64,000 nucleotides of DNA. It comes from Roseibacillus sp. Lineage in GTDB: Bacteria; Verrucomicrobiota; Verrucomicrobiia; Verrucomicrobiales; Akkermansiaceae. Below are positions 39,533-57,629 of this stretch, piece after piece. The position numbers were made by a program, and so were the translations under genes. The stretch lies in the NCBI GenBank assembly GCA_051251855.1, contig JBPOGI010000001.1:1120001-1184000 (forward strand), in the 5' to 3' direction. The stretch's first letter is position 1. Every line of letters begins with the position of its first letter. Under the pieces are notes generated by a model that saw only the letters and a list, made by a program, of their open reading frames with translations, was not told the DNA's origin and did not search any database.

Positions 39533-39555
39533 CACTGGCCGACCGGCCAGAAGTG
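39533..39555 (-). promoter_or_regulatory. Candidate bacterial SECIS element
   Basis: CTGGCC-GGTC-GGCCAG hairpin, loop starts 22 nt after the UGA at 39566-39568. Confidence 0.7.
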
Positions 39556-39556
39556 A

Positions 39557-39997
39557 TTAGCAGCCTCATCCGCCGCCGCCGCCTTCGGCATCACCGCCAC
39601 CGCAGCAGCCGTCATCTTGAGAAGCAAAGTCCTCACTTGTCGGAACCCGCCCAAGCTCAAGAGTCATCCCCACATACTTGCCAATACTTCCCTGCAAAGT
39701 CTGCAGCGCCTGCTGAGCGTTCAAAAAGCTGGTCGCTACCGGATTTTGGAAAAGAGCTTCGCGAGCGGTCTCGAACTCCTTAATCTCAGTCTCTGCTAAC
39801 TGAAGACCAGCCTGCTGCTTCTGATTGAGTTCGTCGCCCCACTCCTGCACTTTGCGAAAGCCGTCACGAGCCGTATCATCCGCAAAAAATGCCTCTACAT
39901 CCTTCTGCAAAGCACTGAATTCGGCATCTCCAGCAATCGCCGCGCAAAGCTCGCGCGTCTTCTCCATAACAGGTGAACTGTCTTCCAAGATATTCAT
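39557..39997 (-). CDS. YlbF/YmcA (RicF/RicA) family protein, predicted selenoprotein ending GGG-U-GC
   Basis: All-helical YlbF-like body (KTRELCAAI, NPVATSFLNAQ); tail CCGGGDAEGGGGG-TGA-GGC-TGC-TAA; SECIS-like hairpin follows. Confidence 0.78.
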
Positions 39998-40127
39998 CGG
40001 GCGGGACGCTAACGGGCATCCTCGCCCCCCGCAACCCGCGATTTCGCCAATTTCTGACCATTTTGAGGCAAACTTTTCGGATGCGAAACCGAGAAGAAAC
40101 GCTATTCTTTGCGCGTAGGACTATATC

Positions 40128-41438
40128 ATGAACTCGAAGCCCATCGCCATCGCCTCAGTTTGGGGAATCTCCGTCGCCGCCGCTTTCTTTGCTGGCAAAG
40201 CCATTTCTCCCTCTGCCAACGAGTCCGTCGAGACCATTCAGGCGGCAAAATCTACTGCCAGCATCGGCAATGAAGGTTCATCCAACCTCGTCTCCACAGG
40301 AGGAAGCACCACCAGTATGGCTTCCGCCCGAGCCCGTCTCGACGCCGCTCCCATGATTGAGCGCGGCTCGACTCCCGAGCAAATGATTGAGGACATCGCC
40401 CGTTTTGATGATGCCATCGAGCGTAATAACGCCCTCCTCGCCCTCATCGATAGTCTCTCTCCCGACGAATTTCTCTCTGTTGTCGACTCCTTCAGACAGT
40501 TAGGCATCACCGACGAGCGAAGAGGCGAATACGAGATGCTCCTAACCGCATGGGCTAAGGTCAATCCTTCCGAAGCACTCGCCTACGCCTCCGAGAACAC
40601 CCGTGGTGGTTTCGCGCGCAACACCATTCTTTCCACTTGGGCAGCCACCAATCCTGACGCTGCCATTGCTTGGGCAGAATCCAACCACGACAATCCCGAC
40701 CGCGCAAATCCTTGGCTTGTAGGAGTCATCGAAGGCATCGCTCCCTACGATATCAGCCGGGCAACCGATCTCATGGAGACCCTTCCCCGTTCTGAGCAAC
40801 GAGGTGAAGCCCTCCGCAGTGTCCTCTCTCAACTCATGTCCAAGGACCCCGAAGATGCCAAAAACTGGACCTCCACCATTGAAGACGACTACCTTCGCTC
40901 TGGTGCCGCAGCCTACACCGCCGAAGCCATTGCTCGCAAAGACCCCGCCGATGCAGCCCAGTGGCTCGCAAGTCTTGGCGATGTCGATGCCCTTAATCGC
41001 GCTGGTGAGGACATTACCGAGGATTGGTATCGCGACAATCCGGAGGAAGCTACCGCATGGATCAGCACGCTGCCCCCCGAAGCCATGAGCGAAGCAGCCG
41101 AAGGAGTCGTAAGTAATATTGTTCGCGAAAATCCTGTCGAAGCTGCCGAGTATCTTTCTCAACTGGCTACTTCCAACCCCGATGCCAACTTCGACAGCGC
41201 CATCCGCGACCTCGTGCGCGGAGCTGGCCGCAGCGATCCAGAACTCGCCGCCATTTGGGTAGGTGGTCTCAGCAACAGCGACGACCAGAGCCGATACTAC
41301 CACCGCGTCTTGGGTGATTGGAAAAATAGGGACTCCGGAGCGGCCGAACAATGGATGATACAAAATGAAGCCAGCCTTCCCGAATCCATCGGACGCCGCT
41401 TCCTTGGCCGCCCTGACCAAAACAACGGAGGCCAGTAG
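40128..41438 (+). CDS. Membrane-anchored alpha-helical repeat protein
   Basis: N-terminal TM; repeated W-x-x-x-[DN]P-x-x-A-x-x-W units. Confidence 0.8.
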   Translation: MNSKPIAIASVWGISVAAAFFAGKAISPSANESVETIQAAKSTASIGNEGSSNLVSTGGSTTSMASARARLDAAPMIERGSTPEQMIEDIARFDDAIERNNALLALIDSLSPDEFLSVVDSFRQLGITDERRGEYEMLLTAWAKVNPSEALAYASENTRGGFARNTILSTWAATNPDAAIAWAESNHDNPDRANPWLVGVIEGIAPYDISRATDLMETLPRSEQRGEALRSVLSQLMSKDPEDAKNWTSTIEDDYLRSGAAAYTAEAIARKDPADAAQWLASLGDVDALNRAGEDITEDWYRDNPEEATAWISTLPPEAMSEAAEGVVSNIVRENPVEAAEYLSQLATSNPDANFDSAIRDLVRGAGRSDPELAAIWVGGLSNSDDQSRYYHRVLGDWKNRDSGAAEQWMIQNEASLPESIGRRFLGRPDQNNGGQ

Positions 41439-41563
41439 CCGCTTGTTGGGGACCGTCTTCCACGGTAAGTATCAAAAAAAGAGGTCATCACTCGACCTCC
41501 GCTTGCCAGAACTCCTCTTGCCCATCATCTCTCTTCAGTTCCTAGTTGTTCTTCTCATCAAAA

Positions 41564-43057
41564 ATGAAAATCCTTTCGCTCTCCGCCCTCACTCTTGCCG
41601 TCCTCTCTCTTCCCCTTGTCGCTCAAGACAAAGATAAGAAAAAAGAAGAGAAGGGCGACAAAGAAGCTATCAGTCTCGAAACAGTCGAAGCCGAAGTCAC
41701 CATCGACGGCCAGACTATTAACTACACCGTCACCGCCGACACTCTCATGCTCAAGGCCGATGATGGCAAAGAGCGCGCCTCCGTCTTTCACGTCTCCTAT
41801 CTCAAAAAAGATACCGAGGCCAAAGACCGTCCTGTGATGTTCGCCTTCAACGGGGGGCCCGGTTCTTCCGCCGTTTGGCTTCACCTTGGCGCCCTTGGCC
41901 CCAAGCTCGTCCCAACCACCACCGATGGCACCGAGACTCTGCCCCCACCCATCACTCTCATCGACAATCCCCACTCCATTCTCGATGTCACTGACCTCGT
42001 TTTCATCGATCCAGTATCTACCGGCTACTCACGTGTCGAAGGCGACGCCAAAGGTGCCGAGTTCCACGGGCTCAACGGCGACATCGAGTCGGTTGGAGAC
42101 TTCATCCGCCGCTGGGCCACCGAACACAAGCGCTGGAGCTCGCCCAAGTATCTTCTTGGCGAATCCTACGGCGGCATCCGAGCAGCCGGCTTAGCGGAAG
42201 AGCTCCAGTCCTCTTACGGCATGAGCCTCAATGGCGTCGTCATGCTGTCCTCCCTTCTCGACTTTCGCACCCTACGCGGGAGCCAAGGCGACTACCTTGT
42301 CAACCAAGTCTACCTCCCAGTCATGGCGGCGGTGGCTCATTACCATGGGAAAATCGACCGCAATCGCGACGAACTCCTCACCGAGGCCCAACTCTTCGCC
42401 AACGGCCCCTACACCAGAGCCCTCTTTGCGGGAGCCTCTCTCACCAAAGCCGAAATCCAAACCCTTGCCAACAAACTCGCAGAGCTTACCGGCGTCTCTT
42501 CCGAACTGTGGGTCGAGACCAGCCTCCGCCTTTCACCCACTCGATTTCGCCGCGAACTTTTGCGCGACGAAAATAAAGTGCTCGGGCGCTTCGATGCACG
42601 TGTCGCTTGGCCAGCTCAATCAAAAGACAGCGACTACCCTTCCTACGACCCATCCTACGCCGTCGCTTACGGAGCCTTCTCCACCGCCATGCTCGCCTAC
42701 CTCACCGACGACTTAGGTGGCAACGAGATTCATCATCCCTATCGCATTCTTACCGGTAAGGTTCACCCTTGGAAATGGAACTCCGAGAACCGCGTCGTCA
42801 ACGTCTCTGGCCGCCTTCAAAGCGCCATGACCGACAACCCCAATTTGCGTGTCCTCATCATGGGTGGCTACACTGACTTCGCTACCCCGCCGAGCGGCAT
42901 CGAATACACCCTCAACCAACTCATCGACCTCCCCAAGCAAAGCCGTGATCGCATTAGCTACGTCTACTATGAAGCCGGCCACATGTTCTACCTCAACGAA
43001 CCCGACATCATCAAGATGCGCGTAGACCTCGTCGATTTTCTTAAAGCCGGCGAATAG
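41564..43057 (+). CDS. Peptidase S10 family serine carboxypeptidase
   Basis: Signal peptide, FNGGPGSS, FIDPVSTGYS, GESYGG, AGHMFY. Confidence 0.93.
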   Translation: MKILSLSALTLAVLSLPLVAQDKDKKKEEKGDKEAISLETVEAEVTIDGQTINYTVTADTLMLKADDGKERASVFHVSYLKKDTEAKDRPVMFAFNGGPGSSAVWLHLGALGPKLVPTTTDGTETLPPPITLIDNPHSILDVTDLVFIDPVSTGYSRVEGDAKGAEFHGLNGDIESVGDFIRRWATEHKRWSSPKYLLGESYGGIRAAGLAEELQSSYGMSLNGVVMLSSLLDFRTLRGSQGDYLVNQVYLPVMAAVAHYHGKIDRNRDELLTEAQLFANGPYTRALFAGASLTKAEIQTLANKLAELTGVSSELWVETSLRLSPTRFRRELLRDENKVLGRFDARVAWPAQSKDSDYPSYDPSYAVAYGAFSTAMLAYLTDDLGGNEIHHPYRILTGKVHPWKWNSENRVVNVSGRLQSAMTDNPNLRVLIMGGYTDFATPPSGIEYTLNQLIDLPKQSRDRISYVYYEAGHMFYLNEPDIIKMRVDLVDFLKAGE

Positions 43058-43152
43058 TTTTCACCGGTTCTCTCCTTTACCTTTACGGGGGTAGAAGCCC
43101 CTTCGAAATCAACTTCGGAGTCCACGAAAAGCTAAGAGTTTCTGCAACTAGC

Positions 43153-43419
43153 TCAGCGCAGTAAGATGCCGACAACTACCAGAGTCGCCCCAAATAGAGT
43201 GAGAACAACTTGAGGGAACTGAGACATTCTAGGTCCCTTGATACCCGCAAGAAACCCAAGGAAGAATCCTCTGAGAAGCCCCCAAAACCCTTGGGTGATT
43301 CCATCTGCGATTCGGTCTCCTGTATTCTCAGAGTCAGGACTAGAGAGAGCTAAGGCAAAGGCTCCAGCAAAGAAAAACACCCCACCAAACGCCAGCAGGA
43401 TTATTCCAATGATTTCCAT
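43153..43419 (-). CDS. Small hydrophobic membrane protein
   Basis: 88 aa with 2-3 hydrophobic segments, follows HAD gene in same orientation. Confidence 0.65.
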   Translation of the reverse strand: MEIIGIILLAFGGVFFFAGAFALALSSPDSENTGDRIADGITQGFWGLLRGFFLGFLAGIKGPRMSQFPQVVLTLFGATLVVVGILLR

Positions 43420-43477
43420 CTCAAAACTTGGACTCTATCGACACGAAAAGTAGCTATGAGCCTCGGGAACCCTGAGA

Positions 43478-44356
43478 CTAAAACTCCGGAGCCGCCACTC
43501 GTGAGTTCTCGCGTTCCTCACTCCGTCTTTGCAAAATCGAATCAGCAATTTTCAATACCGTCTCTTCCAAAATCAATCGTAAGTGACTCCCTGGCCGGTA
43601 GTCGGCCGGAGCAATGTGCTTCACTCGATCTGCGCCTGCAGAAAGCTGGAAACACTTCCGAAAGCTCCTCCGAGTATCATCATTGGGATTATAGACTGCC
43701 ACTGCATGGCCTCCATTCTTCTTCATCACCGTGAAGCAAGGAACGTCTGTAGGTCCATCGCCAATGTAAGTCATATTATGAAAGGGAATCGGACGCTGCT
43801 CCGGCGGCATGTGATCGTTCACATCCTGATCGTAGCCCAACATTCCCTTGTTAATCCTAAAGAGGAACTGCGTCTTTGTGGTGTGTGATATCGTCCGCTT
43901 GGGAAAAGAAATGCACCCATCGCTATTTTCTCCAAACTCACATCCGAAAATCGCCTTCACCTTCCCCTTGAGGCTGCTGCCGTCCAACAACGCCTTCAAA
44001 CCTGAAGAAATGATGTAGTGCTCGACCTTGATTCCCGCCGCTTCATGCTCTGGACGCAAAATTGTATTCAGTTGGTCAAAAAGCTCATCCACTCCCGGAA
44101 AGTAGTGTAGATCCTTTCCCAAGTTCGAAAGATCCGCGTTACTCACATTATCCATCCCCAAATAATCCAGTAAACACTTCATATAAGCCAGCTCCCCATC
44201 CCAGCTCTGCTCCTTCACCAGCGCATTACACTTCTTCCAAAACTGCTCCGGATCGATGCCAAAGCGCGGAAAAAGAACATCATCCTGCATATAGCTCGGA
44301 CTCAGTGTTTGGTCGTAATCGTAAACGAGGGCAATGGTATTTTGGGGTGCAGCCAC
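43478..44356 (-). CDS. HAD-superfamily hydrolase
   Basis: YDYDQTL motif I, ISSG motif [11 protein letters not shown] motif IV. Confidence 0.9.
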
Positions 44357-44470
44357 GCAAGGAGAGTCTCATTTTGCCTCCTTGCGAGCAAGAGAAAGCA
44401 ACAGGCCGAATTGCAGGACATTCTCCCTGCTCTTCAATTCTCCTGAAATCCCCTAAACTCTGGCATTCTC

Positions 44471-44992
44471 ATGACCGAACTCCTCCTCAACGAGCAAATC
44501 TATCACCGCGTGATTGAGGAGTTGGTGCCCGATACCCAGCGCTATCTCTGGATTGTTACCGCAGACCTCAAAGACCTTCATGTCAAAAAGGGCCGCCGCT
44601 ATGTCCCCTTCCTCGCAGTCCTCTCTGACCTCGTGGAATCGGGCGTCGCCGTCCGCCTCTTCCACGCCAAGGAACCAGGGCCTCGCTTCCGCAAAGACTT
44701 CGATCGCTACCCCGCTCTTTTAGAGAGCGAACTTTTCGAGCGTATCCTCTGCCCGCGTATCCACACCAAAGCCATCATCATCGACGGCAAAACCGCCTTC
44801 ATCACCTCCGCCAACCTCACCGGAGCCGGAATGGGCGCCAAGGGTCCGACTAAGCGTAACTTCGAAGCCGGTATCCTCACCGACGAGAAAGCTCACCTCA
44901 CCCCCCTCATCGAGTGGATCGACGAACTCTACTTGGGAGAACCCTGCCTCAAATGTGGCCGCCGTGACTACTGCCCTGATCCCATTGCTTAG
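44471..44992 (+). CDS. Single-domain phospholipase D/nuclease family protein with Cys-rich tail
   Basis: HTKAIIIDG..FITSANLT HKD motif, NFEAG, C-terminal CLKCGRRDYCPDP. Confidence 0.88.
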   Translation: MTELLLNEQIYHRVIEELVPDTQRYLWIVTADLKDLHVKKGRRYVPFLAVLSDLVESGVAVRLFHAKEPGPRFRKDFDRYPALLESELFERILCPRIHTKAIIIDGKTAFITSANLTGAGMGAKGPTKRNFEAGILTDEKAHLTPLIEWIDELYLGEPCLKCGRRDYCPDPIA

Positions 44993-45065
44993 AAACACCC
45001 CGAGTCGGATTTACCGCCTTCCCACTTGATTCTTCTGCCCTCTTACGCCATTCCTCCCGCCTCCG

Positions 45066-46082
45066 ATGAACTCTGATCTCGCCGAAATCCAAACTGCTGC
45101 CCTTGCTGCTATCGCGTCTGCCTCCGATGGTCAAAGCCTCGAACAGGCCAAGATCGATTTTCTCGGTAAAAAGGGTCGTCTCACTGCCGCCTCGGCTTTG
45201 ATGAAGAGCCTTCCCAATGAGGAGAAACCCGCTTTCGGGCAATCCCTCAACGCCGTGCGCGGTGCCATCTCCGGTGCGTTGGATGAAAAGCAGTCCGCCC
45301 TTCAGAACATCGCCGACCGCGAAGCCATTGCCGGCATCGACATCACTCTCCCTGGCCGCGAGATCCACACCGGAGGCCTACACCCTCTCACCCGCATCAA
45401 AGACGACGCCATTCAGATTCTTCGTCGCATGGGCTTCGCCCTCGCCGAAGGCCCCGAAATCGAGGACGAATTCCATTGCTTCGATGCCCTCAATACTCCT
45501 ACCGATCACCCCGCTCGGAACGAGAAAGACACCTTCTACTTCGACTCCGGCAAACTCCTCCGCACTCACACCTCGTCTGTACAAGTGCGCACCATGGAGA
45601 ACCAGACCCCACCCGTTCGTATCATCGCCCCCGGCTCCGCTTACCGTCGCGACGAAATTGACGCCACTCACCTCTCTGTCTTCAACCAGTTGGAAGGCCT
45701 CTATGTTGCCGAAAACGTGTCCCTAGCCGACCTGAAAGGCACCCTTATCTACTTCTTCCAAGAACTCTTCGGCGCTGAGACCGAACTCCAATTTCGCCCT
45801 CACTTCTTTCCTTTCACCGAGCCCTCCTTCGAGATCGATATCAAGCTTCACATCGCAGGCCGCGCGCCCAAGTGGATCGAGGTTGCCGGTTGCGGCATCG
45901 TAGACCCCGCCGTTTTCGCCGCGATCAGCAAGTCACGTGGAGACGATGCCTTCGACCCAGCCAAAGTCACCGGTTTTGCCTTTGGGATGGGTCTCGACCG
46001 TCTCGCGATGATTAAGTGGGGAATCAAAGACATTCGTCTTCTTATTGAAAACGACACCCGCTTCCTCAAGCAATTCGCCTAG
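45066..46082 (+). CDS. pheS: Phenylalanine--tRNA ligase alpha subunit
   Basis: HPAR..DTFY, LRTHTS, FPFTEPS, GFAFGMGLDR. Confidence 0.97.
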   Translation: MNSDLAEIQTAALAAIASASDGQSLEQAKIDFLGKKGRLTAASALMKSLPNEEKPAFGQSLNAVRGAISGALDEKQSALQNIADREAIAGIDITLPGREIHTGGLHPLTRIKDDAIQILRRMGFALAEGPEIEDEFHCFDALNTPTDHPARNEKDTFYFDSGKLLRTHTSSVQVRTMENQTPPVRIIAPGSAYRRDEIDATHLSVFNQLEGLYVAENVSLADLKGTLIYFFQELFGAETELQFRPHFFPFTEPSFEIDIKLHIAGRAPKWIEVAGCGIVDPAVFAAISKSRGDDAFDPAKVTGFAFGMGLDRLAMIKWGIKDIRLLIENDTRFLKQFA

Positions 46083-46083
46083 G

Positions 46084-46197
46084 CTAATACCCTTGCGTCT
46101 TCATCACGACGAATGCCGCCACAGCTAAGAGAGTTATCACAATCAGGCCAATTCGACCCGACCGGGTCTTGGCTGCTTTACATACCATTCAAATCAT
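46084..46197 (-). CDS. Predicted 37-aa membrane selenopeptide MIUMVCKAAKTRSGRIGLIVITLLAVAAFVVMKTQGY
   Basis: ATG ATT TGA ATG GTA TGT gives UxxC; one TM helix; TAG stop; SECIS-like hairpin within the CDS; absent from ORF track. Confidence 0.62.
46147..46173 (-). promoter_or_regulatory. Candidate bacterial SECIS element
   Basis: GCCAA-GACCC-GGTC-GGGTC-GAA-TTGGC; loop starts 26 nt after the UGA at 46189-46191. Confidence 0.65.
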
Positions 46198-46279
46198 ATT
46201 GGTAGTTTCGCCTGAATCTCAGAAAACTCAACAGAAGATAATCTGTCCTGTCGCTTGAAACTGTGGCTCAATACTTCAC

Positions 46280-46762
46280 GTGAAAACTGCCGTCTACGCA
46301 GGATCCTTCGATCCCCCCACCAATGGCCACCTCTGGATGATCGAACAAGGCCTCGCTCTTTTCGACCGACTCATCGTCGCCATTGGCAATAATCCCTCCA
46401 AAAGCTACACCTTCAGCGTCCCCGAGCGCCTCGAACTCCTGCGTGAGTCCACCGCCCAAAACGATAACCTTCTTATTGAGCATTTCGACAATCGCTACCT
46501 CGTCGACTACGCCAAGGAACAGGACGCCAAATACATCCTCCGCGGCATCCGCTCACCTGGTGACTACGAGTATGAGCGCGTCATGCGACACATCAACAAC
46601 GACCTCGCTCCCACCGTCACGACCTGCTTCCTGATGCCACCCCGCGAACTCGCGCAAGTTTCTTCCAGCATGGTCGAATCCCTCATCGGACCCAAAGGTT
46701 GGGAAGAAACCGTCGAGCGCTACGTCCCCCCACCGGTCTTCCGAGCTCTCAAGGCAAAGTGA
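46280..46762 (+). CDS. coaD: Pantetheine-phosphate adenylyltransferase
   Basis: [29 protein letters not shown]. Confidence 0.95.
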
Positions 46763-46846
46763 GACGAAAGAACATTTCTGCCTCTAGTGAGGAAGACTCA
46801 CGGACCAGTACAATCTCACTTCTCAGTTTCCATTTAAGGCCCTCCC

Positions 46847-47305
46847 ATGAAACTTGAAGAAACGACTTATCCCGAGGCAGTTAAGACCCACAGACCAGAG
46901 GTTTTCGAAAAACTGAAAACGAACACTCCCCGACATGTCGTAGCCATTCTCGAAAAGAAAGGTTGGTCCCGCGAGTGGGCGTGTCAAATTGTGGCTGGCA
47001 TCGAGCGGAAACGCAATCCCGCTGGCTTGATGAATGGCTCTGATGAGAACCAGAGGCTCCGAAAAAAATACGTCTTGAGAGCAATGCTTGGTGGGGTGTT
47101 TTTCTTGATTGGCTTGCTTGTGACTATTGGGACTCTCGTGATTTCCTTCGCTCAAGGCGGAATTGCCATCATTGCTTACGGAGCGATTATCTGGGGAGGA
47201 ATCACATTCTGGAGCGCATACCCGAACATTTCCCGTTACCCTGATCGGGAAATACCCGTCTATCATCCTCCCAAAGCGAAGGGTCATAATCCTCAAGACT
47301 ACTAG
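46847..47305 (+). CDS. Hypothetical membrane protein
   Basis: 152 aa, two TM segments, IAYGAIIWG. Confidence 0.7.
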   Translation: MKLEETTYPEAVKTHRPEVFEKLKTNTPRHVVAILEKKGWSREWACQIVAGIERKRNPAGLMNGSDENQRLRKKYVLRAMLGGVFFLIGLLVTIGTLVISFAQGGIAIIAYGAIIWGGITFWSAYPNISRYPDREIPVYHPPKAKGHNPQDY

Positions 47306-47359
47306 AAGAGCCGTCCGTTTGTTAGAAGGACAGTCTCTCTTCCAAGGGTAGCTCCAACC

Positions 47360-49129
47360 CTAAAGCTTCTCAACCTCCGCAAAATAGGCGCTCACCTTTT
47401 CTCCACCTTCGAGAACAAAGGTAGTCTCAAGCTCGACCTCGCCCTTCGTTAACTCGACTTCAAAGCTCACTCCGGCGTCATCGGCAGTCACTTCTTGCTC
47501 GCCAGAAAAGCCACCTATCTTCAAGAGAGCTTTTTTGACCGGAAGCGCTTTCCCCGGTGTTTCACGGAACGCCTTCAATCCAGGAACTGGTGCTCCCGGC
47601 TCCATGCCCGAAACAATCTTTGCTCCCGTTGACATCGGCCAACGACGAAGAGTAATACGATACTTTGCAGTCTCGGTCACATTGAGAGCCCACCATCCCT
47701 CTGTCAAAGGAGCGGCCCGCAACATCGAGTGATTCCATGGCACCATATTTGCCTTCGTTAACCAGTCATGCGAAGTCAGCACAGTTGGATTTTCAAACTC
47801 GGTTCCCACTTGAATACGAGCAAAGCGCTTGAACGCAGGCTGCAAACTCTCCCACCAAGCATCGTAGTCAGCACGTAACTTCTCGACCACTTCGGGATGC
47901 TCCTCGGCGATGTTCTTTGCCTGACCGGGGTCAGCCTCGATATCATAAAGTTCCTTTCCGTTCAGCAAGCGCCAACGCTCAGTCATCGTGCTCGAATTAC
48001 GCCACTTTTTAGGATCAACCACTCGTTGTGAGTCAGTAATGATCGTTCTTTCCTCCCACTCCGCATCCTCTGATTTCAAGAGAGGAACCAAAGAGCGCCC
48101 ATCCAAAGGGTAGTCTTCAGGAATCTCAGGCAGCTCGCACAATTCAACCAAAGTCGGCAGAACATCAATGTGCGCCGTCAGGGTGTCAATATCGCGCCCT
48201 CCGTCCAGCCCACCATTGGGCCAATGCATGAAAAACGGAACGCGATGTCCGCCATCGAAGTTAGAGCCTTTGCCCTTCTTCATGCCGCTGTTGTGAATAT
48301 TCACTCCGCGTGCACTTCCATTGTCGGTCATGAAAATGAAGAGGGTATCTTTCGCCAACCCTTCCTCTTCTAACCAACCCCGCAACTTAGCAACATTCTC
48401 GTCAATGTTCGCAATCATACCGAAAAAGATGGCCTGTTCCTGGCTCTTTTGGTCCTTCATTTTCTCGTCGTAAGGCTTCCAATACTTGTCTGGACAATGA
48501 TAGGGGCCGTGAGGTGCGTTAGGTGAAATGTAGGCGAAGAACGGCTTTTCCTCTTTCACGCTTTCTCCGATGAAGCGCTTGGCCTCTTGGAAGTAGACAT
48601 CCGTGCAATAGCCCTCGTATTTCTTGGGCTCACTATTGTGCATGTAGGTGTCATCAAAGTAGGCATTGTCCCAATGGTCAGGAGCTTGCCCCACCCCACC
48701 GGCAGCATGGCGCACCACCTCTTGAAAACCACGGTCTTCCGGACGGAAAGGATAGTTGTCACCCAGATGCCATTTACCGAACATCCCGGTGGAATATCCG
48801 CCATCTTCAAAGGCATCCCCCAAGGTCATCTCTCCCTCGAACAAGAAACAGCGCCCCATAATGGTGTGCCAAGGTCCAGCCCGGTTCGTGAAGTGACCGC
48901 TCATCAAGGCACCTCGGGTCGGAGCGCAAGTAGGGCTCACATGAAAGTCAGTCAAACGAACACTTTCCCCGTGGAGCTTATCAAGCGCGGGAGTCTCTAG
49001 GATTGGATTCCCGTGACAGGAGAGATCGCCATATCCTTGATCATCAGTAATCACTAGCACCACATTCGGGTGCGCGTTCGCCACGACAGCGAGTCCAACA
49101 AGGGCAAAAGTAGTTCGTATCAACGACAT
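47360..49129 (-). CDS. Arylsulfatase (S1, Cys-type)
   Basis: Signal peptide, TDDQGYGD, CAPTRGALMSG (CxPxR), GKWHLG, TDNG. Confidence 0.95.
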   Translation of the reverse strand: MSLIRTTFALVGLAVVANAHPNVVLVITDDQGYGDLSCHGNPILETPALDKLHGESVRLTDFHVSPTCAPTRGALMSGHFTNRAGPWHTIMGRCFLFEGEMTLGDAFEDGGYSTGMFGKWHLGDNYPFRPEDRGFQEVVRHAAGGVGQAPDHWDNAYFDDTYMHNSEPKKYEGYCTDVYFQEAKRFIGESVKEEKPFFAYISPNAPHGPYHCPDKYWKPYDEKMKDQKSQEQAIFFGMIANIDENVAKLRGWLEEEGLAKDTLFIFMTDNGSARGVNIHNSGMKKGKGSNFDGGHRVPFFMHWPNGGLDGGRDIDTLTAHIDVLPTLVELCELPEIPEDYPLDGRSLVPLLKSEDAEWEERTIITDSQRVVDPKKWRNSSTMTERWRLLNGKELYDIEADPGQAKNIAEEHPEVVEKLRADYDAWWESLQPAFKRFARIQVGTEFENPTVLTSHDWLTKANMVPWNHSMLRAAPLTEGWWALNVTETAKYRITLRRWPMSTGAKIVSGMEPGAPVPGLKAFRETPGKALPVKKALLKIGGFSGEQEVTADDAGVSFEVELTKGEVELETTFVLEGGEKVSAYFAEVEKL

Positions 49130-49278: not shown

Positions 49279-50142
49279 CTACCGAATCTCCATCCCCGTC
49301 TTGGAGTGAATCCATTTATCCAGCTTGCCTTGCTTAAACATGGCCTTCGCTTGCAGAGTCTTTTCTCCCAAAATAGTCATCTCTTTGTAAGTCGCCACTC
49401 CTACTTGGAAATCTTGCCCATCGAAAGACTCATCACCGATAGCCTCCCAATTGATGACCTTGGAGGCGTCTAGCTCCTTAATTTTTCCTCCTTCTAAACT
49501 CTCCTTCATTGCCGCGATAATTTGCTCGTTGCTCAGGCTTGCAGGAGTTTCCGGCACTGGCGCTGGCTCAGGTTCTTCAGCTGGTTCAACGGGAGTATCT
49601 CCGGCCATGCCGCCACCCATTCCAGAATCAGGAGTGGGAGCTGCAACCGCAACCTCTGGCTTCGGTGGAGTTGGCTCTGATGGAGTCGCCACCGGTGGTT
49701 TCGCGCCTCCGCTCGCGGCATCAGCCATCGCCACTCGGCGTTCCATGCGCTTCATCGCAACGCCGTGGGCAAAATCGGTATCAAGAACTGAAATCTCGCC
49801 AGTCAAGTGGCTTGCCAAGGGCGAAGTGACCTCCAGAACCATCTCAGTAAGGAGGAGAGGCTTCGCAGGGCTCCCTGGATCAAGCTTTAGCGGGCTCAAA
49901 CCGTTTTTATCGGTAAGAACTGTCGCGTCAGACAAAGTCACCTTCTCAGGGTAGTCCTTAGGATCGATATCATGATAGTCGATCGTCTCTGTAATGGTTC
50001 CCATGGGAGACCTCACCTTAATCTCGACCACAGTCTCAGAAGTTGCACTTCCTGACTCTTCCTCCCCAAACAAGGGCGAATAAAGAACCTTCCCCAGAAA
50101 AAAAGCGGCAGGGATCATGAGAACGTAAAAGATAAATTTCAT
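49279..50142 (-). CDS. Hypothetical membrane-anchored protein with Pro/Glu-rich linker
   Basis: N-terminal TM, two domains separated by PE-rich segment. Confidence 0.7.
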   Translation of the reverse strand: MKFIFYVLMIPAAFFLGKVLYSPLFGEEESGSATSETVVEIKVRSPMGTITETIDYHDIDPKDYPEKVTLSDATVLTDKNGLSPLKLDPGSPAKPLLLTEMVLEVTSPLASHLTGEISVLDTDFAHGVAMKRMERRVAMADAASGGAKPPVATPSEPTPPKPEVAVAAPTPDSGMGGGMAGDTPVEPAEEPEPAPVPETPASLSNEQIIAAMKESLEGGKIKELDASKVINWEAIGDESFDGQDFQVGVATYKEMTILGEKTLQAKAMFKQGKLDKWIHSKTGMEIR

Positions 50143-50301
50143 AGAAAATCAGGTGGTTGCTCTTCTTAGAACGCCACAAAACGTCCTTTCTTCGCAATAC
50201 TTCCCGAAAATTTCCCCGTCAGCCACTCTCAAAACCAACAAAGTGCGCCTCCCGCAGAATTCGGTCTTCATACTTGGCTCGCCTTCCCCAATCCTCGCGC
50301 C

Positions 50302-53139
50302 ATGACCGAAGCACCCGAGCCCAACCGCCTCTTTCTCCTCGATGGTATGGCCCTCGTCTACCGCGCCCACTTTGCCCTCATTCGCAACCCCATCATGAAC
50401 TCCAAGGGCGTAAACACCTCCGCCCTCTTCGGATTCACCAATACTCTTCTCTCCATTATCCAAAACGAGAAGCCCACCCACCTCGCGGTTGCATGGGACA
50501 CCTCAGCCCCCACTCCTCGTCACGTAAAGTATCCCGAATACAAAGCCAACCGCGACGAGATGCCGGACGAGCTCCGCACCGCCATCCCTGCCTGCAAAGA
50601 ACTCTGCAAAGCCTTCGCCATCCCACTGCTCGAAATCGATGGCTACGAAGCAGACGACCTCATCGGAACCCTCGCCAAGACAGCAGACGACAAAGGCGAC
50701 TACCACACCTTCATGGTCACCCCCGACAAAGATTTTGCCCAGCTCATCTCTCCCAGAGCCACCATGTGGAAGCCCGGCCGCAAAGGCTCCGAATTCGAAG
50801 CCATCACACCCAAGCAGCTCCCCGAAATCTGGGGCGTGGAAGAGCCGCACCAAATCATCGACCTCCTCGGCCTCATGGGGGACGCCTCCGACAACATCCC
50901 CGGAGTCCCTGGCATCGGTCCCAAGACCGCAGTCAAACTCATCGCACAATTTGGTTCCATCGAGGAACTCCTCCAAAACACCGACAAGCTCAAAGGAAAG
51001 CAGAAGGAAAACGTCGAGAACAACAAAGAGAACGCGATCCTCTCCAAAGACCTCGCCACCATCATCCGCGACGCTCCCCTCGACGTCACTTTCGAAGACC
51101 TCGTCCTCAGTCCCTACAACGAAGAAGCCATTCAGAAAATTTTCGCCGAATACGAATTCCGCACCCTCGCCACCCGCCTCTTCGGCAAAGGAGCGCGGAG
51201 CACCAGCTCCGCCCCAGCAGAAACGTCCTCCTCCGAAGAACTCCCCACCCTCAAAACCCTCGCCGACACCAAGGCCAACTACATCCTCGTCAATTCCCCC
51301 GCCCTCGAAAAAGACCTCTTCGCCGCCCTCGAATCCGCCGACAGCTACTGCTTCGACCTCGAAACAACCTCCCTCGACCGCTTCGAGTCCAAAATCCTCG
51401 GCATCGCTTTCGCCCTCGAAACCGGCACCGCCTACTACCTTCCCTACAACCGCGTCCATCACGCGCGCCTGCAGGAACTTTTCTCCCAGCCCACCCAAAA
51501 GATCGGCCACAACCTCAAGTTCGATCTCCACATTCTCAACAGTCACGGCTTTACCGTCGCCGGTCCCTTCTTCGACACCATGATAGTCCACGCCTTGCTC
51601 TACCCCGAGCAGCGTCACACCATGGACCGCCTCGCCGAGAATCTTCTCAGCTATCAAACCATCAAGCTCACCGACCTCGCGGCCAAAGCCCAGGAAGAAG
51701 CCGAGGCCAAGAAAGCCAAAGAAGCAGCCGAAGAGGATCTCTTCTCTCTCGCCGCCACGAAGGAAAAGAAAAAGCCAGCCTCCAAGAAAGTCGAGATCGA
51801 CATGAAGGCCATCCCTCTGGAAGACCTCGCCGAATACGCCGCTGAGGATGCCGACATCACCCTTCAACTCGCTCATCTCCTCCGCCCACTGTTAGAAGAA
51901 AACAAACTCACCGAAGTCTACCAAACCATCGAAGCCCCTCTTCTCCCTGTCCTGGTGCAAATGGAAGCCGAAGGCATCGCCCTCGCGCCTGACCTCCTCG
52001 CCGAAGTCGGAGTCGACCTGACCAACCGCATCGACAATCTTTCCCAAACCATCACCGCCGCCGCAGGGCAAGAGTTTAACCTCAACTCCCCCAAGCAACT
52101 GGGCGAAATCCTCTTTGAAAAACTCAAACTGGTCGATAAACCTAAGAAGACCAAGACCGGTCAATACAGCACCAACGAGCAAACCCTTTCCCTCCTCGCC
52201 GTAGAGCACCCCATCGCCGCCGATATCCTCCTTTACCGTCAAGCCACCAAGCTCAAGTCCACCTACGTCGATGCCCTCCCCAACGACATCGCCCCCCACG
52301 ACAACCGCATCCACACCCACCTCCACCAACACGTCGCCGCCACCGGTCGCCTCGCCTCCAGCGACCCCAATCTGCAGAACATCCCCGTCCGTAGCGACCT
52401 CGGCCGCGAAATCCGCAAAGCCTTCGTCCCTCGCGACACCTTCACCCTCCTCGCCGCCGACTACTCCCAAATCGAGCTCCGCATCATGGCCGCCCTCTCT
52501 GGCGACCCCTCCATGATTGCCGCTTTCCAAAACGACCGCGACATCCACACCGAGACCGCCGCCAAGGTTTTCGGAGTTTCCAGCGAAGAAGTCACTAGCG
52601 ACCAACGCCGCACCGCCAAGATGGTCAACTTCGGCATCATCTACGGCATCTCTGCCTTCGGACTCTCCCAACGCCTCGCCATTCCCCGCGCTGAAGCCTC
52701 CGAAATCATCGAAGCCTACTGGAAAGAGTATCCCAGAATCAAAGACTTCATGAACGCCACCATCGAGTCGGCCAAAGAACTGGGCTACACCGAGACCATC
52801 AGCGGACGCCGCCGCTACTTCCCCGAAATCAACTCCGGCAACGGCACCGTGCGCGCCAATGCCGAACGCGCCGCCATCAACACTCCCATTCAAGGAACCG
52901 CCGCCGACATGATCAAGCTCGCCATGATCGAAACCGCCGAACTGCTCACCAAGCAAGAGACCCAATCAAAAATGCTCCTCCAAGTGCACGACGAACTCCT
53001 CTTCGACCTTCACGACAGCGAAGCCGAAACCCTCCCCGCCCAAATCGTCACCACCATGGAAGAAGCCCTCGTCCTCCCCAACGACGTCCCAATCAAAGTC
53101 GAAGTCGGCACCGGCCAAACATGGCTCGAAGCCCACTAA
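50302..53139 (+). CDS. polA: DNA polymerase I
   Basis: 5'-3' exo (YEADD, GDASDNIPG), 3'-5' exo (DLETT, NLKFD, YAAED), polymerase motifs ADYSQIELR, KMVNFGIIYG, QVHDE. Confidence 0.98.
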   Translation: MTEAPEPNRLFLLDGMALVYRAHFALIRNPIMNSKGVNTSALFGFTNTLLSIIQNEKPTHLAVAWDTSAPTPRHVKYPEYKANRDEMPDELRTAIPACKELCKAFAIPLLEIDGYEADDLIGTLAKTADDKGDYHTFMVTPDKDFAQLISPRATMWKPGRKGSEFEAITPKQLPEIWGVEEPHQIIDLLGLMGDASDNIPGVPGIGPKTAVKLIAQFGSIEELLQNTDKLKGKQKENVENNKENAILSKDLATIIRDAPLDVTFEDLVLSPYNEEAIQKIFAEYEFRTLATRLFGKGARSTSSAPAETSSSEELPTLKTLADTKANYILVNSPALEKDLFAALESADSYCFDLETTSLDRFESKILGIAFALETGTAYYLPYNRVHHARLQELFSQPTQKIGHNLKFDLHILNSHGFTVAGPFFDTMIVHALLYPEQRHTMDRLAENLLSYQTIKLTDLAAKAQEEAEAKKAKEAAEEDLFSLAATKEKKKPASKKVEIDMKAIPLEDLAEYAAEDADITLQLAHLLRPLLEENKLTEVYQTIEAPLLPVLVQMEAEGIALAPDLLAEVGVDLTNRIDNLSQTITAAAGQEFNLNSPKQLGEILFEKLKLVDKPKKTKTGQYSTNEQTLSLLAVEHPIAADILLYRQATKLKSTYVDALPNDIAPHDNRIHTHLHQHVAATGRLASSDPNLQNIPVRSDLGREIRKAFVPRDTFTLLAADYSQIELRIMAALSGDPSMIAAFQNDRDIHTETAAKVFGVSSEEVTSDQRRTAKMVNFGIIYGISAFGLSQRLAIPRAEASEIIEAYWKEYPRIKDFMNATIESAKELGYTETISGRRRYFPEINSGNGTVRANAERAAINTPIQGTAADMIKLAMIETAELLTKQETQSKMLLQVHDELLFDLHDSEAETLPAQIVTTMEEALVLPNDVPIKVEVGTGQTWLEAH

Positions 53140-53226
53140 AAGAAGGACCTCAAATGCCCACACTCGCCGCTACGTCATGCCCCACAGCCTTCTGGACTTC
53201 AAATCCCGAAATGCCATCCTCGCGGA

Positions 53227-55386
53227 ATGACTCTCCGCAACATCCTCCCAACCATCACTCTCATAGTCGGGATTGCTTTGGGACTCATGGGAGCAAGGAC
53301 CTTCCCTTCCTCCGGACAAACCTCCAACACCTCCGCTCACACCAAATCTAACGCACAAAACTCCTCGAGATTCAGAAATCCTTCTCACGCCCAAGCCAAC
53401 AAAACCTCCCCTTCAAGCAATATCTTTACCGGTTCCGCAGAAGATCTTCTCGCCCTCCTTCCAGCCAACAACACGTGGATTCCGACTGTTCGGTTTCTCT
53501 CCACCGTCGAAAGACTGCCCCAAGAACAGGTCGAAACTTTGTTAGAGGAACTGCAAAGCGCCTCCCGTTCGGAGGGGGTTAGGATGGCTGAAAACACCCT
53601 CATCCGTCGCTGGGCTCAACTTGATCCCGAAGGGGCATTTACTGCTACCCAAAGCTTTGACCCTAAAAAAATCAGATTCGATCTCATTGCGACCGTCACG
53701 ACAGAGATGGCTTCACAGAATCTCGAACGATCCATTTCCTATGCGGACACTCTCACCAACAAGCTTGAGAAAAAACTCTTTTTGGAGGGGATAGCAAAGG
53801 CCATCACCGAGCAAGACGCTGAACGGGCCCTTAAACTTTTCGCGCAGGCAATCAAAGAAGATTCATCTACCGGAACCATGTCTCAGTCCTCTTCGCACTA
53901 CTCTAACATGACCTATTTAGCTTGGCTAAAACAGGACCCAAACGCCGCTATCGCAGCAGTCGCAGGAATTGAAGACCCTGCCAAACGTTTTCAAAATCAG
54001 AAGAATTTTGCACGCGCACTTGCAACAAGAGATCCGGAGAAAGCTCTCTCTTTAGCTTTGAGTTTGAAAGGAACTGAGCGACTTGAATTGCTGGATGGTG
54101 TGATTACAAATACGGCCCGTAAGGACCCTCAGAAAGCTCTCACTTTTCTCAAGGAAATTCCTGACGGCCCGAAGAGAGACGACGCTCTCAACAGTCTGTA
54201 TAATAGTTGGTTAAAAAAAGATCCCGAACAGGCCCAGGCTTGGATGCAAGCGCTCCCAAAAAAGGAACAAGCAAAGGTTCTTCGAGAAAGTATCAATCAT
54301 CTGGCCAAGCACGATATCGAAGGAGCGCTCGACCTCTTGGATAGCTTTCCTCCCAGCGCTGATACTCCGGGCCATTATTCAAGTCTCATTGACCGCTGGG
54401 CTGATTCTGATCCTGTGGCAGCTCAAGCATGGGTTGAGCAACTGCCTCCCGGGCCGGCCCGAGAATCAGCCTTGGATGAACTCGTAGAGCACCTCACGAT
54501 AAAGAAGCCTTCTCAAGCCGCCTCTCTCCTCGCGGGAGAACTCATCAATAGCGGGAATAGCCGCGATGTCTCCCAAATCGCCGAGAAGTGGGTTCTCACC
54601 GATCCAGACGCCACCTTAGCTTGGTTAGGCTCTCTGAAAGCCTCCGGAACGACCCGACAAACCTTCATTGCAGAAACCATCTATCACCTCGCTGAGAAAG
54701 AACCCGCAAAAGCCGCGGCCTATACCCTCGACATCGAGGATCCTAAAGTCCGTGAAGGAGCAATCAAGTCACTTGTCTTTGGATGGGGGGAGCAAGATTT
54801 GGAAAGCGCCAAAACTTGGATCAAAGCCCATCTCACAAAATCCGAACAAGCGAGCGCTCATAGCTCCTTGATCAGAAAACTCAGTTACAAGGAACCAGCC
54901 AAAGCCCTCGCGCTTCTCGAAGAAGCATCTCGAGGGCTCGCCCCTGAGGAAATTAGAACGCATTTCAGTCGTAACATGAGTGCTATTGCCACTTCTTGGG
55001 CCGGGACCGATCCTGCCGCTGCAGCCTCATGGGCACAGGGCCAAACTGACCCCAAGGACCGGCAAACATTGATAGCCAAGGTGGTCGACAAGTGGGCTCG
55101 ATATGACACCACTAGCGCCGCCAATTTTGTGCTCACTCTCGACGAAGGCGGGGAACGCGATTCCGCGATCAAGAACTTAGCTAAGGATCTCGCTCGGTGG
55201 GATCCCGAGTCAGCCTTCCTCTGGGCGGATAGTGCCGCAGATGAGAAAGCCCGCGAAAGCATCATCCGTTCCACTATCAACACTTGGAAGCAATCCAATC
55301 CCGAAGCCGCCCGAGAGGCCGTTCTCGGAGCCAACATCACCGAGGAGCAAAGAGCCAGCATCCTCAAAGGATTCAAATCGAACTAA
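53227..55386 (+). CDS. Membrane-anchored alpha-helical repeat protein
   Basis: N-terminal TM, S/T linker, many WAxxDPxAAxxW repeats; same type as 40128..41438. Confidence 0.82.
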   Translation: MTLRNILPTITLIVGIALGLMGARTFPSSGQTSNTSAHTKSNAQNSSRFRNPSHAQANKTSPSSNIFTGSAEDLLALLPANNTWIPTVRFLSTVERLPQEQVETLLEELQSASRSEGVRMAENTLIRRWAQLDPEGAFTATQSFDPKKIRFDLIATVTTEMASQNLERSISYADTLTNKLEKKLFLEGIAKAITEQDAERALKLFAQAIKEDSSTGTMSQSSSHYSNMTYLAWLKQDPNAAIAAVAGIEDPAKRFQNQKNFARALATRDPEKALSLALSLKGTERLELLDGVITNTARKDPQKALTFLKEIPDGPKRDDALNSLYNSWLKKDPEQAQAWMQALPKKEQAKVLRESINHLAKHDIEGALDLLDSFPPSADTPGHYSSLIDRWADSDPVAAQAWVEQLPPGPARESALDELVEHLTIKKPSQAASLLAGELINSGNSRDVSQIAEKWVLTDPDATLAWLGSLKASGTTRQTFIAETIYHLAEKEPAKAAAYTLDIEDPKVREGAIKSLVFGWGEQDLESAKTWIKAHLTKSEQASAHSSLIRKLSYKEPAKALALLEEASRGLAPEEIRTHFSRNMSAIATSWAGTDPAAAASWAQGQTDPKDRQTLIAKVVDKWARYDTTSAANFVLTLDEGGERDSAIKNLAKDLARWDPESAFLWADSAADEKARESIIRSTINTWKQSNPEAAREAVLGANITEEQRASILKGFKSN

Positions 55387-55388
55387 GG

Positions 55389-55513
55389 CGAGCTCTTTCG
55401 TAGTTGAATTGGCCGCAAACTCAGCAGCCCTTGCTAACGCTCAACTTCCAAGAAGGCATTTACGATAGAAAGAAGCCACAAGTAAGGAACTTGTCCCAAC
55501 TACGAACAGCTCG
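55389..55513. repeat. 125-bp element bounded by imperfect 17-18 bp inverted repeats
   Basis: CGAGCTCTTTCGTAGTTG (55389-55406) and CAACTACGAACAGCTCG (55497-55513). Confidence 0.55.
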
Positions 55514-55681
55514 ACTGAACCCACGAAAATCACAACTTGCTAGTTTCGCAAAGGGGTCAGATCTAACATTTCTAGAAATGCTGAGCTCTATATCATGATC
55601 GAAATGCGTTACGAAAACCATGCTGACAAAGCTTGAAAAGGCGGCTTGTTTGGGGGGGGGAATACTTGATATGAATCAGCC

Positions 55682-56986
55682 ATGACCTCATTCCAATTTC
55701 TACGCTCATTGTGCACTCTCTGTAGCATAGGCCTCGCCACCCAATTGACCCTTCTTGCCGCAGATCCTACTCCAGAGCGGGACTGGAACTCCAAGGCTGG
55801 CACGACGATCAAAGCGGTAGCTCAGACGGTTGAAAAGAAGACTGTTTCTTTGGTTACCACTGATGGCCGGACTCTGAAGGTCCCACTCGACAAGCTTACC
55901 AATGAGGACCAAGCGTTCCTCATTGAGCACTTTTCCATTGCGATGCCCAAGCCAGGTGAAGCCTTTGGCAGTGATTTAGCCCCAGCCAGTGGACTCCCGC
56001 AAGATTTGGGTGAATCGGCAGCTCCGATTGTCGCGAGCAGCACTTCCAAATACCTTATTTATTTACCGACTACTCTTAAGGAAGGCCGCTCTGCGCCTCT
56101 CCTCTTTTGGACTCATTCTGGCGGTGGCAGCCCCAAAATCTTGAACCACATGAAGCGCGGTGCAGAGTTCAATGGTTGGATCGTCGCCTGTTCAATGGAG
56201 TCTCGAAATAACAATGGTTTCGAGCAGAACCACGAGAACACGAAAGACTGTCTCAAGCACATCAAAGAGAACTTCCCCATCGATCCAGACCGCATCTATT
56301 TCACGGGATCGTCGGGTGGTGCCGCAACCGCGTTCTACAACGCAGTTCATCTTCCCCATGCCGGAGTCCTTTCCTCTGTCGGCTATCTCAATGGAGGAAC
56401 CCCTTCCGGCGGCGACTACTTCATTTCGGGAGGAGCTTATGACTTTAACCGCTATATTTCTGCACGTGCCGGGAAAATGGTCGGAGAAAGAAAGAGCACT
56501 CTTCGCTATCACCCAAAAGGACACGGTGTCGTTCCCGATTGGCTCATCAACGACGGAATGCTCTGGCTCAATCTTCGCTATCTTGAGGGCAAAGAGAAGA
56601 AGATGACCGCCGAGTGCCAAGACTTTGAGTTCCAAACCTTAGCTTGGCTTAACGAGCGCCGCGCCGAACACCCTCACCGAGCATACCATGCCGCCTTACA
56701 AATAACTCAGGCGCTTGAGATTTCGGACCACAACGCCCCCTTCTTCGAAAAGATGATGTCTGAGCTAGGGACGGAGCTGAATAAACGCTACGTTGAGGGC
56801 CTTGAAGAAATGGAAGATTTTGGACGTTCCAAGTTAGAACCTTATGGGGATTCATCTCAGATGAAGCATACCACTCCTCAGCTAGAAGCTGCTGCTCAGA
56901 AACTCTCCACAAAATACGCAGGCGTCCCCGAGATCGAAGAGCTCGCCCTCTTGCTAGGCCGGATCACTGATAAGCTTGGGAAGTAA
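55682..56986 (+). CDS. Secreted SHD1-like domain + alpha/beta-hydrolase-fold protein
   Basis: Signal peptide; RDW...VPLDKLTNEDQAFL SHD1-like pattern; IDPDRIYFTGSSGGA nucleophile elbow; KGHG. Confidence 0.78.
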   Translation: MTSFQFLRSLCTLCSIGLATQLTLLAADPTPERDWNSKAGTTIKAVAQTVEKKTVSLVTTDGRTLKVPLDKLTNEDQAFLIEHFSIAMPKPGEAFGSDLAPASGLPQDLGESAAPIVASSTSKYLIYLPTTLKEGRSAPLLFWTHSGGGSPKILNHMKRGAEFNGWIVACSMESRNNNGFEQNHENTKDCLKHIKENFPIDPDRIYFTGSSGGAATAFYNAVHLPHAGVLSSVGYLNGGTPSGGDYFISGGAYDFNRYISARAGKMVGERKSTLRYHPKGHGVVPDWLINDGMLWLNLRYLEGKEKKMTAECQDFEFQTLAWLNERRAEHPHRAYHAALQITQALEISDHNAPFFEKMMSELGTELNKRYVEGLEEMEDFGRSKLEPYGDSSQMKHTTPQLEAAAQKLSTKYAGVPEIEELALLLGRITDKLGK

Positions 56987-57046
56987 GCCGTAAGCTCAAA
57001 GTGAATCTACTCCCCTTGACGACGTAACTCGGTGAGGGACAACCCC

Positions 57047-57077
57047 AAAAAAACCGACTCCACAAATCGTGGGTCGG
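57047..57077 (-). terminator. Rho-independent terminator of the redoxin gene
   Basis: Minus strand CCGACCCAC-GATTT-GTGGAGTCGG then T7. Confidence 0.7.
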
Positions 57078-57125
57078 CTCCCCTTCTTCTCCTCAATGAG
57101 GCCGGAGAGACCGGTTACCTCTGGG

Positions 57126-57629
57126 TCACTTCTTGCCAGAAGTAGCCGCTTTTAGAGCTTTATCGAAAGCTCGATCCATAATCCCTTGGAAGATTAAAAC
57201 TCCTGCTTCGTCGATGATCATGACCTTAGGTGACTTTCCTCCATCCAGAAATTCTCCAAACTTCTCTTTGTCGTATTTAATCCCTTTTTCGTGATAGACG
57301 GGGAGCCTCAAGTCTAAGGCTTCAGCGGTAGCCTTTCCCTTGGCTGGCTTGTCTGCTTTGTGAGCGACAAGAAAGGTCGCGCCACTGCTCTTCTTCCGAC
57401 GGGCCAGTTTCTCAAACTGAGGAAGGCCCGCGTTGCATGCTTGTCAGTGCGAAGGCCATGAGGCCAACACGACGACTTTCCCGTCAATATCCGAACGCTC
57501 CAACTCAGGGCCAAACAGGTGCTGCTTAAGAGTAATATAGGAATTCTTCCCTTCGACATTTTCCTCTGCTGAAATCGAAGCAGATAGAAATGCGAATACG
57601 AAGATGGGTAACAATTTCATTAACTTCAT
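57126..57629 (-). CDS. Secreted TlpA/ResA-like redoxin, predicted selenoprotein (UxxC)
   Basis: ORFs 57444..57650 and 57126..57311 are one frame joined through TGA 57444-57446: GKVVVLASWPSH-U-QAC-NAGLPQFEKL...SPKVMIIDEAG; start 57629 or 57620. Confidence 0.85.

Follow-up and report, generated by a model that had tools for sequence, protein, structure and literature searches.

The window analysed here, 64,000 nucleotides of a Roseibacillus sp. genome (contig JBPOGI010000001.1, positions 1,120,001 to 1,184,000), holds three genes with an in-frame UGA codon, two of which are followed by hairpins with the same apex. We find that both matching hairpins are very likely ordinary bacterial selenocysteine insertion sequence (SECIS) elements, which would recode the upstream UGA to selenocysteine (Sec; U in protein motifs). 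The first stands behind the UGA of a YlbF-family gene (site 1). Sequence comparisons make it highly probable that the second (site 2), likewise an ordinary SelB-binding SECIS, is part of a conserved gene of 37 codons, predicted to encode a microprotein that spans the membrane once and has Sec as its third residue. The third UGA (site 3) belongs to a gene for a thioredoxin-fold protein. All three UGAs behave like Sec codons in comparative tests, and the genome as a whole is, by its sequence, rich in predicted selenoproteins, with about 30 candidate genes.

The shared apex is the 8-mer CCGGTCGG, which occurs twice on the minus strand of the window, at 39539–39546 and 46158–46165, with 6.6 kb between the copies. 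It is flanked by unlike stems, CUGGCC/GGCCAG at site 1 and GACCC/GGGUC at site 2, and its loop starts 21 and 25 nt past the last base of the UGA (that is, at +22 and +26). Beyond the UGA the two genes read U-G-C-stop and U-M-V-C, so that a Cys follows two to three codons later; the corresponding motif at site 3 is U-Q-A-C, and the loop there is AGUUU, not GGUC (Table 1). The spacing of the copies, the stems and the distances to the UGA given in a preliminary description of the window proved correct. The same description had remarked on three UGA-at-Cys genes within 18 kb. They are present, but their density is no signal, as simulations that place 30 genes at random put three of them within such a distance in 13% of runs (P ~0.13), and we set the clustering aside as evidence. 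The 8-mer itself is at chance level in the window (2 seen, 2.54 expected; at least two in 68 of 100 shuffles). Genome-wide there are 80 copies, seven of which are extended by at least three further stem pairs, and three of these seven lie behind a candidate Sec codon.

Table 1. Features of the three sites in the window (positions within the 64,000-nt stretch).
Feature	Position	Strand	Basis
Site 1: YlbF/Com_YlbF-family gene, 146 amino acids with read-through, tail C-C-G(n)-U-G-C-stop	39557..39997	-	PF06133
Site 1: UGA, predicted Sec, three residues from the C terminus	39566..39568	-	aligns with first Cys of ortholog C-G-C
Site 1: SECIS-type hairpin CUGGCC-GGUC-GGCCAG, entirely in the 3′ untranslated region	39535..39550	-	ortholog comparison
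Site 2: unannotated gene of 37 codons; Met-Ile-Sec, then basic residues up to S-G-R and a single hydrophobic helix (residues ~16–33)	46084..46197	-	comparative
Site 2: UGA codon 3, predicted Sec	46189..46191	-	TGA in 25/25 family copies, 50/51 metagenomic matches
Site 2: SECIS-type hairpin GACCC-GGUC-GGGUC within the coding sequence, UGA–loop distance 25 nt	46155..46168	-	comparative
Site 2: predicted promoter TTGAGT-16 nt-GAAACT, ends 6 nt before ATG	46204..46231	-	pattern in family upstream regions
Site 3: TlpA/ResA-like thioredoxin-fold protein, signal-like N terminus, H-U-Q-A-C, UGA 57444–57446	57126..57629	-	PF00578, ResA-like
Site 3: SECIS-type hairpin, loop AGUUU 25 nt after UGA	57398..57431	-	hairpin analysis

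To relate the hairpins to UGA codons in general, we compared 15 test UGAs, namely the two hairpin sites and 13 chosen by coding score and protein motif (site 3 among them), with ordinary codons of the genome. A hairpin was scored if its stem had 4 bp or more and it had an N-G-U-N(N) loop 16–37 nt 3′ of the codon; such hairpins, whose loop pattern was selected after the candidates had been inspected, stand behind 10 of the 15 test UGAs and 18 of 707 ordinary TGA stops, and behind 12/1330 TAA stops, 15/1309 TAG stops and 49/3000 Cys codons. Across the genome, hairpins with R-G-U-Y loops follow 79 of 8016 TGA frames, compared with 28/5057 TAG and 32/5139 TAA frames (together 60/10196; P = 0.003). 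The enrichment after TGA relative to the other stops that had been put forward as a check of the idea was thus obtained; it is modest, and the R-G-U-Y probe is useful only when combined with coding evidence. As a probe for unannotated selenoproteins the motif works in this hairpin form but fails as the exact 8-mer, which is at chance level in the window and recovers few Sec codons (3/34).

The final set comprises 30 candidate genes with 34 UGA codons, 33 of which are followed by a hairpin that fits the general bacterial SECIS model. Over the 34 codons the loops start with GGUC (13), AGUU (10), CGUG (3), GGUU (2) or another sequence (5), and one codon has no hairpin. The apex of the E. coli fdhF SECIS is likewise GGUC. 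All three sites of the window agree with the model: their loops are GGUC, GGUC and AGUUU at UGA–loop distances of 21, 25 and 25 nt, and, against a modelled stem of 4–16 bp, the first two have perfect stems of 6 and 5 bp and the third a bulged one. For the first two positions of the loop the source of the model gives G and then G or U, at 16–37 nt from the UGA (PMC13188914, Fig. 2), and E. coli SelB recognises the loop bases G23/U24 (PMC8659212). With the elements described there, that of E. coli fdhF included, the Roseibacillus hairpins share a short stem, a loop of 4–6 nt lying 16–33 nt past the UGA, G at loop position 1–2 followed by U or G, and a genome with selA, selB, selC and selD (PMC13188914; PMC8659212). 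We see no categorical difference; the YlbF element lies wholly beyond the true stop, and that of the microgene is found in either of two registers, 5 nt from each other. Because the loops fit the general bacterial model, we read these elements as ordinary SECIS.

The preliminary description had instead taken CC-GGUC-GG for a SECIS peculiar to the lineage. Such an element would be read by a SelB of altered specificity. GGUC is the most frequent loop start (13/34), and the CCGGUCGG core is present in both registers of the microgene hairpin and again behind a third gene. The exact CCGGUCGG, however, stands behind just 3 of the 34 candidate Sec codons, and YlbF orthologs exchange one loop type for another (GGUC, AGUUY/AGUCU or CGUGY) while their stems vary freely. 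Every loop is moreover compatible with the general model, and E. coli SelB reads G23/U24 (PMC8659212). We consider a lineage-specific element very improbable and treat both matching hairpins as ordinary SECIS.

The 37-codon gene at site 2 (hereafter the microgene) is placed between pheS and coaD, antisense to both, and starts Met-Ile-UGA-Met-Val-Cys. It combines the features of a selenoprotein gene: a conserved in-frame UGA, a coding signature, a SECIS and confinement to Sec-using genomes. All nine genus genomes contain it, and cultured Roseibacillus strains have its pattern. A profile search of 121 family genomes recovered full-length copies in 25, each with exactly one TGA and E ≤ 5.5e-10; the next match is a partial, frameshifted copy, leaving the full-length set cleanly apart from the background. 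The selenocysteine synthase gene selA is present in 59 of these genomes (60 matches minus one of 18 bits), and an intact microgene occurs in 25 of the 59 selA-positive and in none of the 62 selA-negative genomes, counts in which related genomes are not independent. Two further copies in other families both come from selA-positive genomes. A metagenome pattern that admitted TGA, TGC or TGT at codon 3, but included the hairpin core and was so biased against Cys forms, gave 51 matches, 50 of them with TGA (35 distinct), all with an open frame, hydrophobic helix and hairpin. No further full-length copy was found in a 400-genome sample of the phylum in which at most 19 candidates were scored per genome, and viral contigs gave no match.

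Among 1.84 billion protein representatives only three match the microprotein (E ≤ 0.001), all of them unnamed and starting right after the UGA, and neither Pfam nor NCBIfam gives a match at E ≤ 0.01. No Cys homolog was found among those representatives (E ≤ 0.001) or in the genome samples. The sole TGC match from the metagenomes has an 11-codon frame and no hairpin and is unrelated, and partial matches in the relatives G190 and G152 were discarded as Cys orthologs since they lack a start codon and helix or run antisense. (G000 denotes the genome under study and other G numbers its relatives; C and L label contigs and loci.) The only Cys-like trace is a frameshifted remnant in G042 (L103), which has Cys-like codons but no longer an intact hairpin.

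The coding signature comes from 24 aligned copies. Entropy over the three codon positions is 0.81/0.52/1.45, and single-base codon differences are synonymous in 1287 cases and non-synonymous in 630. None of the copies has a stop in frame, compared with 15/24 and 13/24 in the other two frames. The hairpin sits inside this coding sequence in one of two registers: ten copies have a UGA–loop distance of 25 nt and 14 one of 30 nt, the latter being typical of most other genera; the motif S-G-R is retained while the SECIS has moved by 5 nt, with a switch of the Ser codon between TCC and TCG. Upstream, a promoter-like pattern (TTG-N3, a spacer of 16–18 nt and N-A-N-N-N-T ending 5–7 nt before the ATG) is found in 60 of 63 distinct copies; among called ATG genes it precedes 123 of 2763, and at random sites it occurs in 181 of 20000. 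Because this pattern ends 5–7 nt upstream, transcription would start at the ATG and the mRNA would be leaderless. Genome-wide, TTG at −35 and A-N-N-N-T at −11 also peak before called ATG starts, which suggests that a few percent of genes (123/2763) may be leaderless.

The UGA could alternatively be a true stop, so that the locus yields a dipeptide, a peptide restarting at codon 4–5 or a SelB-binding small RNA. Codon 4 is ATG, TTG, GTG or CTG in 7 of the 24 copies, the window copy included, and gene callers do call forms starting after the UGA. In the other 17 copies, however, codon 4 is unable to start translation, the synonymous bias and the hydrophobic helix continue past the UGA, the microgene tracks selA, and the hairpin lies at SECIS distance. 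A true stop is very improbable on this evidence, and Sec at residue 3 remains our reading.

Several observations weigh against this reading or parts of it. Thirty-four selA-positive family genomes have no detectable intact microgene. Outside the genus its neighbours vary, and none indicates a partner. One reverse-strand frame is likewise stop-free over the 63 nt tested. Cys at U+3, present in 18 of 24 copies (three more have Cys at 8 or 9 alone), is absent in 6/24 genome and 12/35 metagenomic copies, so that U-x-x-C chemistry is not universal. Covariation in the hairpin is weak: the codon alignment shows no pair with changes in both partners, and when 46 copies of the 30-nt register are compared, pair 5 alone stands above shuffles (22/1000); as proof of the hairpin, covariation was not obtained. 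Folding of the whole region gives unremarkable z-scores of −0.46 to −1.33. We fitted the promoter pattern post hoc, and a generic consensus scan did not call it.

These features suggest how the microgene may work. It would have its own promoter and a leaderless mRNA, on which the ribosome would reach the UGA two codons after the start, with SelB-mediated recoding at codon 3. Without Sec-tRNA a dipeptide would be released; with Sec-tRNA the 37-mer would be made. Since failed insertion would cost only a dipeptide, protein output would track the supply of Sec-tRNA. With 3–5 Lys/Arg in residues 1–15, the protein would probably insert with its N terminus inside, so that the selenol, in many copies accompanied by a Cys at U+3, would lie at the inner surface of the membrane. 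The protein may bind a membrane partner and use its selenol as a redox switch. Such a selenium-gated small membrane regulator with a redox-active selenol is our tentative reading, a plausible one that falls somewhat short of probable; we favour a regulator over a catalyst because no Cys form was found, the second Cys is variable and the promoter is stand-alone. MgrB, KdpF and AcrZ are small regulatory membrane proteins of 30–50 residues with one helix and stand-alone genes, and the microprotein resembles them in these three respects, though not in sequence; to our knowledge none of them contains Sec.

The microprotein may instead be a redox catalyst or lipid-peroxide scavenger at the membrane surface, acting through U-x-x-C or an intermolecular diselenide. 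This is a possibility we take seriously while doubting it. Eighteen of the 24 copies have a Cys at U+3 and three more have one at 8 or 9 alone, and most other selenoproteins of the genome are thioredoxin-type. Redox selenoproteins usually have Cys orthologs, however, the site 3 thioredoxin included, and none was found here; moreover, three of the 24 copies have no Cys at all in residues 4–10. Returning to the regulator, a more specific form would make the microprotein a dedicated selenium sensor, in which UGA codon 3 of a leaderless mRNA converts Sec-tRNA supply into the amount of regulator, as the control element of a selenoproteome of about 30 genes. We regard this as rather unlikely; it would explain why the microprotein exists in the Sec form only. 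That selenoproteome, unusually large and in marine Verrucomicrobiales, would also hold several uncatalogued families.

At site 1 the Com_YlbF domain (PF06133) scores 57.7 bits against a gathering cut-off of 23.9 (E = 1.8e-15), and the orthologs establish, at the level of sequence, an interchange of Sec and Cys in the tail. The top homologs that carry a name come from Roseibacillus. Of the 120 family genomes with a match, 90 supplied tails for comparison, 77 parsed and 13 unparsed. U-x-C tails occur in 18 of the 77, all from selA-positive genomes, and a strict hairpin lies beyond the true stop in 17 of these 18, compared with a weak one in 2 of the 59 others. By eye, about 25 of the 120 homologs listed break off in the glycine run, while C-G-C or C-C-S closes most of the rest. 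A second look, which left five loci unread, added a U-G-C tail with hairpin from the unparsed 13. It also showed a UGA at the upstream C-C pair in two of the parsed genomes, each again with a hairpin. UGA forms occurred in selA-positive genomes only. In these two the UGA replaces the second (L151, G059) and the first (L158, G120) Cys of the pair, respectively. Changes from Cys to Sec thus appear to have recurred at different positions of the tail.

Bacillus RicF (YlbF) and RicA (YmcA), which share PF06133, have the same combination of a Com_YlbF domain and a Cys-rich flexible tail, and the tail cysteines of RicF ligate a 4Fe-4S cluster, together with RicT (PMC6751060). By analogy with RicF, the Sec of the Roseibacillus protein would replace a metal or Fe-S ligand Cys, and a ligand substitute is its most likely role. 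RicT (YaaT; PSP1 domain, PF04468) has no match in this 95%-complete genome, in a search whose control was positive in 6 of 14; this tells against the proposed role and leaves the RicAFT analogy incomplete. Beside the missing partner, the Roseibacillus tail differs from that of Bacillus RicF in having Sec in place of a Cys. No paper was found that joins selenoproteins and YlbF, and the 119-family selenoprotein table has no YlbF row (PMC13188914).

The protein of site 3 matches PF00578 (E = 1.1e-10) and ResA-like proteins (E = 4e-8), below all curated NCBIfam cut-offs. Both homologs found among 120 relatives read H-C-G-A-C. It shares the fold signature and the Sec at the first Cys with U-x-x-C thioredoxin-like, TlpA and Redoxin selenoproteins, and we assign it by sequence as an ordinary member of this known class.

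The genome (4.96 Mb, 95% complete) is equipped for Sec: tRNA-Sec (selC) is detected at 63.9 bits, above cut-off, as are selB, selA and selD, the last with one in-frame TGA. A lack of selB/selC in a complete genome would have spoken against the preliminary description; both genes are present, and the larger hidden selenoproteome that it suspected holds, at about 30 candidate genes with 34 UGA codons. Family matches in which U stands where the Cys is expected cover fourteen of the 30, several below curated cut-offs: FdhA, SelD, SelW, MsrA, ArsC, Bcp/Prx, VPGUxxT, DUF3179, five thioredoxin-like proteins and one weak U-x-x-U protein. For another ten the relatives examined retain the TGA: YlbF, the microgene, three ASPIC/UnbV genes, one double-UGA membrane protein and four others (two thioredoxin-like, with TGA in 2 and 3 of 5 genomes, and two whose TGA is shared by the closest relative alone). 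The last six rest on frame and hairpin alone, one of them having no hairpin: two thioredoxin-like proteins, a U-x4-U protein, a tandem HMA protein, a Bat-like protein and MiaB. A candidate at C7:85221 was removed from the count as it lies upstream of a normal start codon.

UGA reassignment to Trp has reportedly occurred in some Verrucomicrobiota, and in-frame UGAs are numerous here. A genome-wide Trp reading nevertheless has next to no likelihood: UGA is still a normal stop, ending 717 of 3356 genes called by a dicodon model, the only tRNA with a UCA anticodon is tRNA-Sec, and in-frame UGAs fall at catalytic Cys positions, which contradicts Trp. We retain Sec as the meaning of these codons.

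Several of the candidates deserve separate mention. Three adjacent FG-GAP/ASPIC-UnbV (CRTAC1-like) genes at C6:415249-426860 (L124–L126) each read D-L-UGA-S-V-Y-W and carry a SECIS-type hairpin; in G027 at least six ASPIC/UnbV paralogs were read at this site, each with a hairpin. The 119-family table has no ASPIC/UnbV row (PMC13188914), and we found no paper joining that family with a selenoprotein. The double-UGA gene at C6:322640-322903 (L130:641-904, minus strand) encodes an 87-codon membrane protein with one hairpin per UGA, the second being the genome's third CC-GGUC-GG; it is kept in 4 of 5 relatives, one of which seems to carry a third UGA repeat. At C1:1073659 (L128) a UGA with a GGUC hairpin lies in a Gly/Gln-rich linker and recurs in G071; neither of the two selA-negative homologs that were read has a Cys in its place. 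Five predicted exported proteins with an in-frame UGA (C8:392858, C1:1392626, C11:155879, C7:209945 and C10:209784) have no NCBIfam match (E ≤ 0.01), and the TGA is kept in relatives for the first three. Ten tRNA genes, partly duplicating the core set, are packed into 1.6 kb at C10:114076-115599.

The microprotein and the Sec form of YlbF are absent from the 119-family catalogue and the literature searched; subscription papers and supplements may list them. No row of the table combines Met-x-Sec with one transmembrane helix (PMC13188914). The small selenoproteins tabled there (KCU-star, UXX-star, SaoC, selenobacteriocin and dual-CXXC) are likewise encoded by short frames that gene callers miss or truncate, and have Sec near a terminus; the microprotein differs from them in having no family match and no Cys form found. 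Title searches gave no relevant papers on small, leaderless or N-terminal Sec proteins or on Roseibacillus, and nothing on this selenoproteome, whose families subscription papers or supplements of prediction studies could list. Between 57 and 63 selenoproteins have been reported elsewhere, and Roseibacillus is a genus that we take to be aerobic and marine. About 30 predicted selenoproteins in such a genus argue against the rarity of selenoproteins in aerobes, whose retention of them is called rare in a 2026 review listing 119 families (PMC13188914). Gene callers read the microgene locus as a two-codon frame, and searches based on Cys homologs would miss it, so that Sec-only microproteins may be a blind spot of selenoproteome catalogues. 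With the mRNA predicted to be leaderless, Sec insertion at its third codon would be an unusual case of SelB recoding just past initiation, and a plausible way of sensing selenium.

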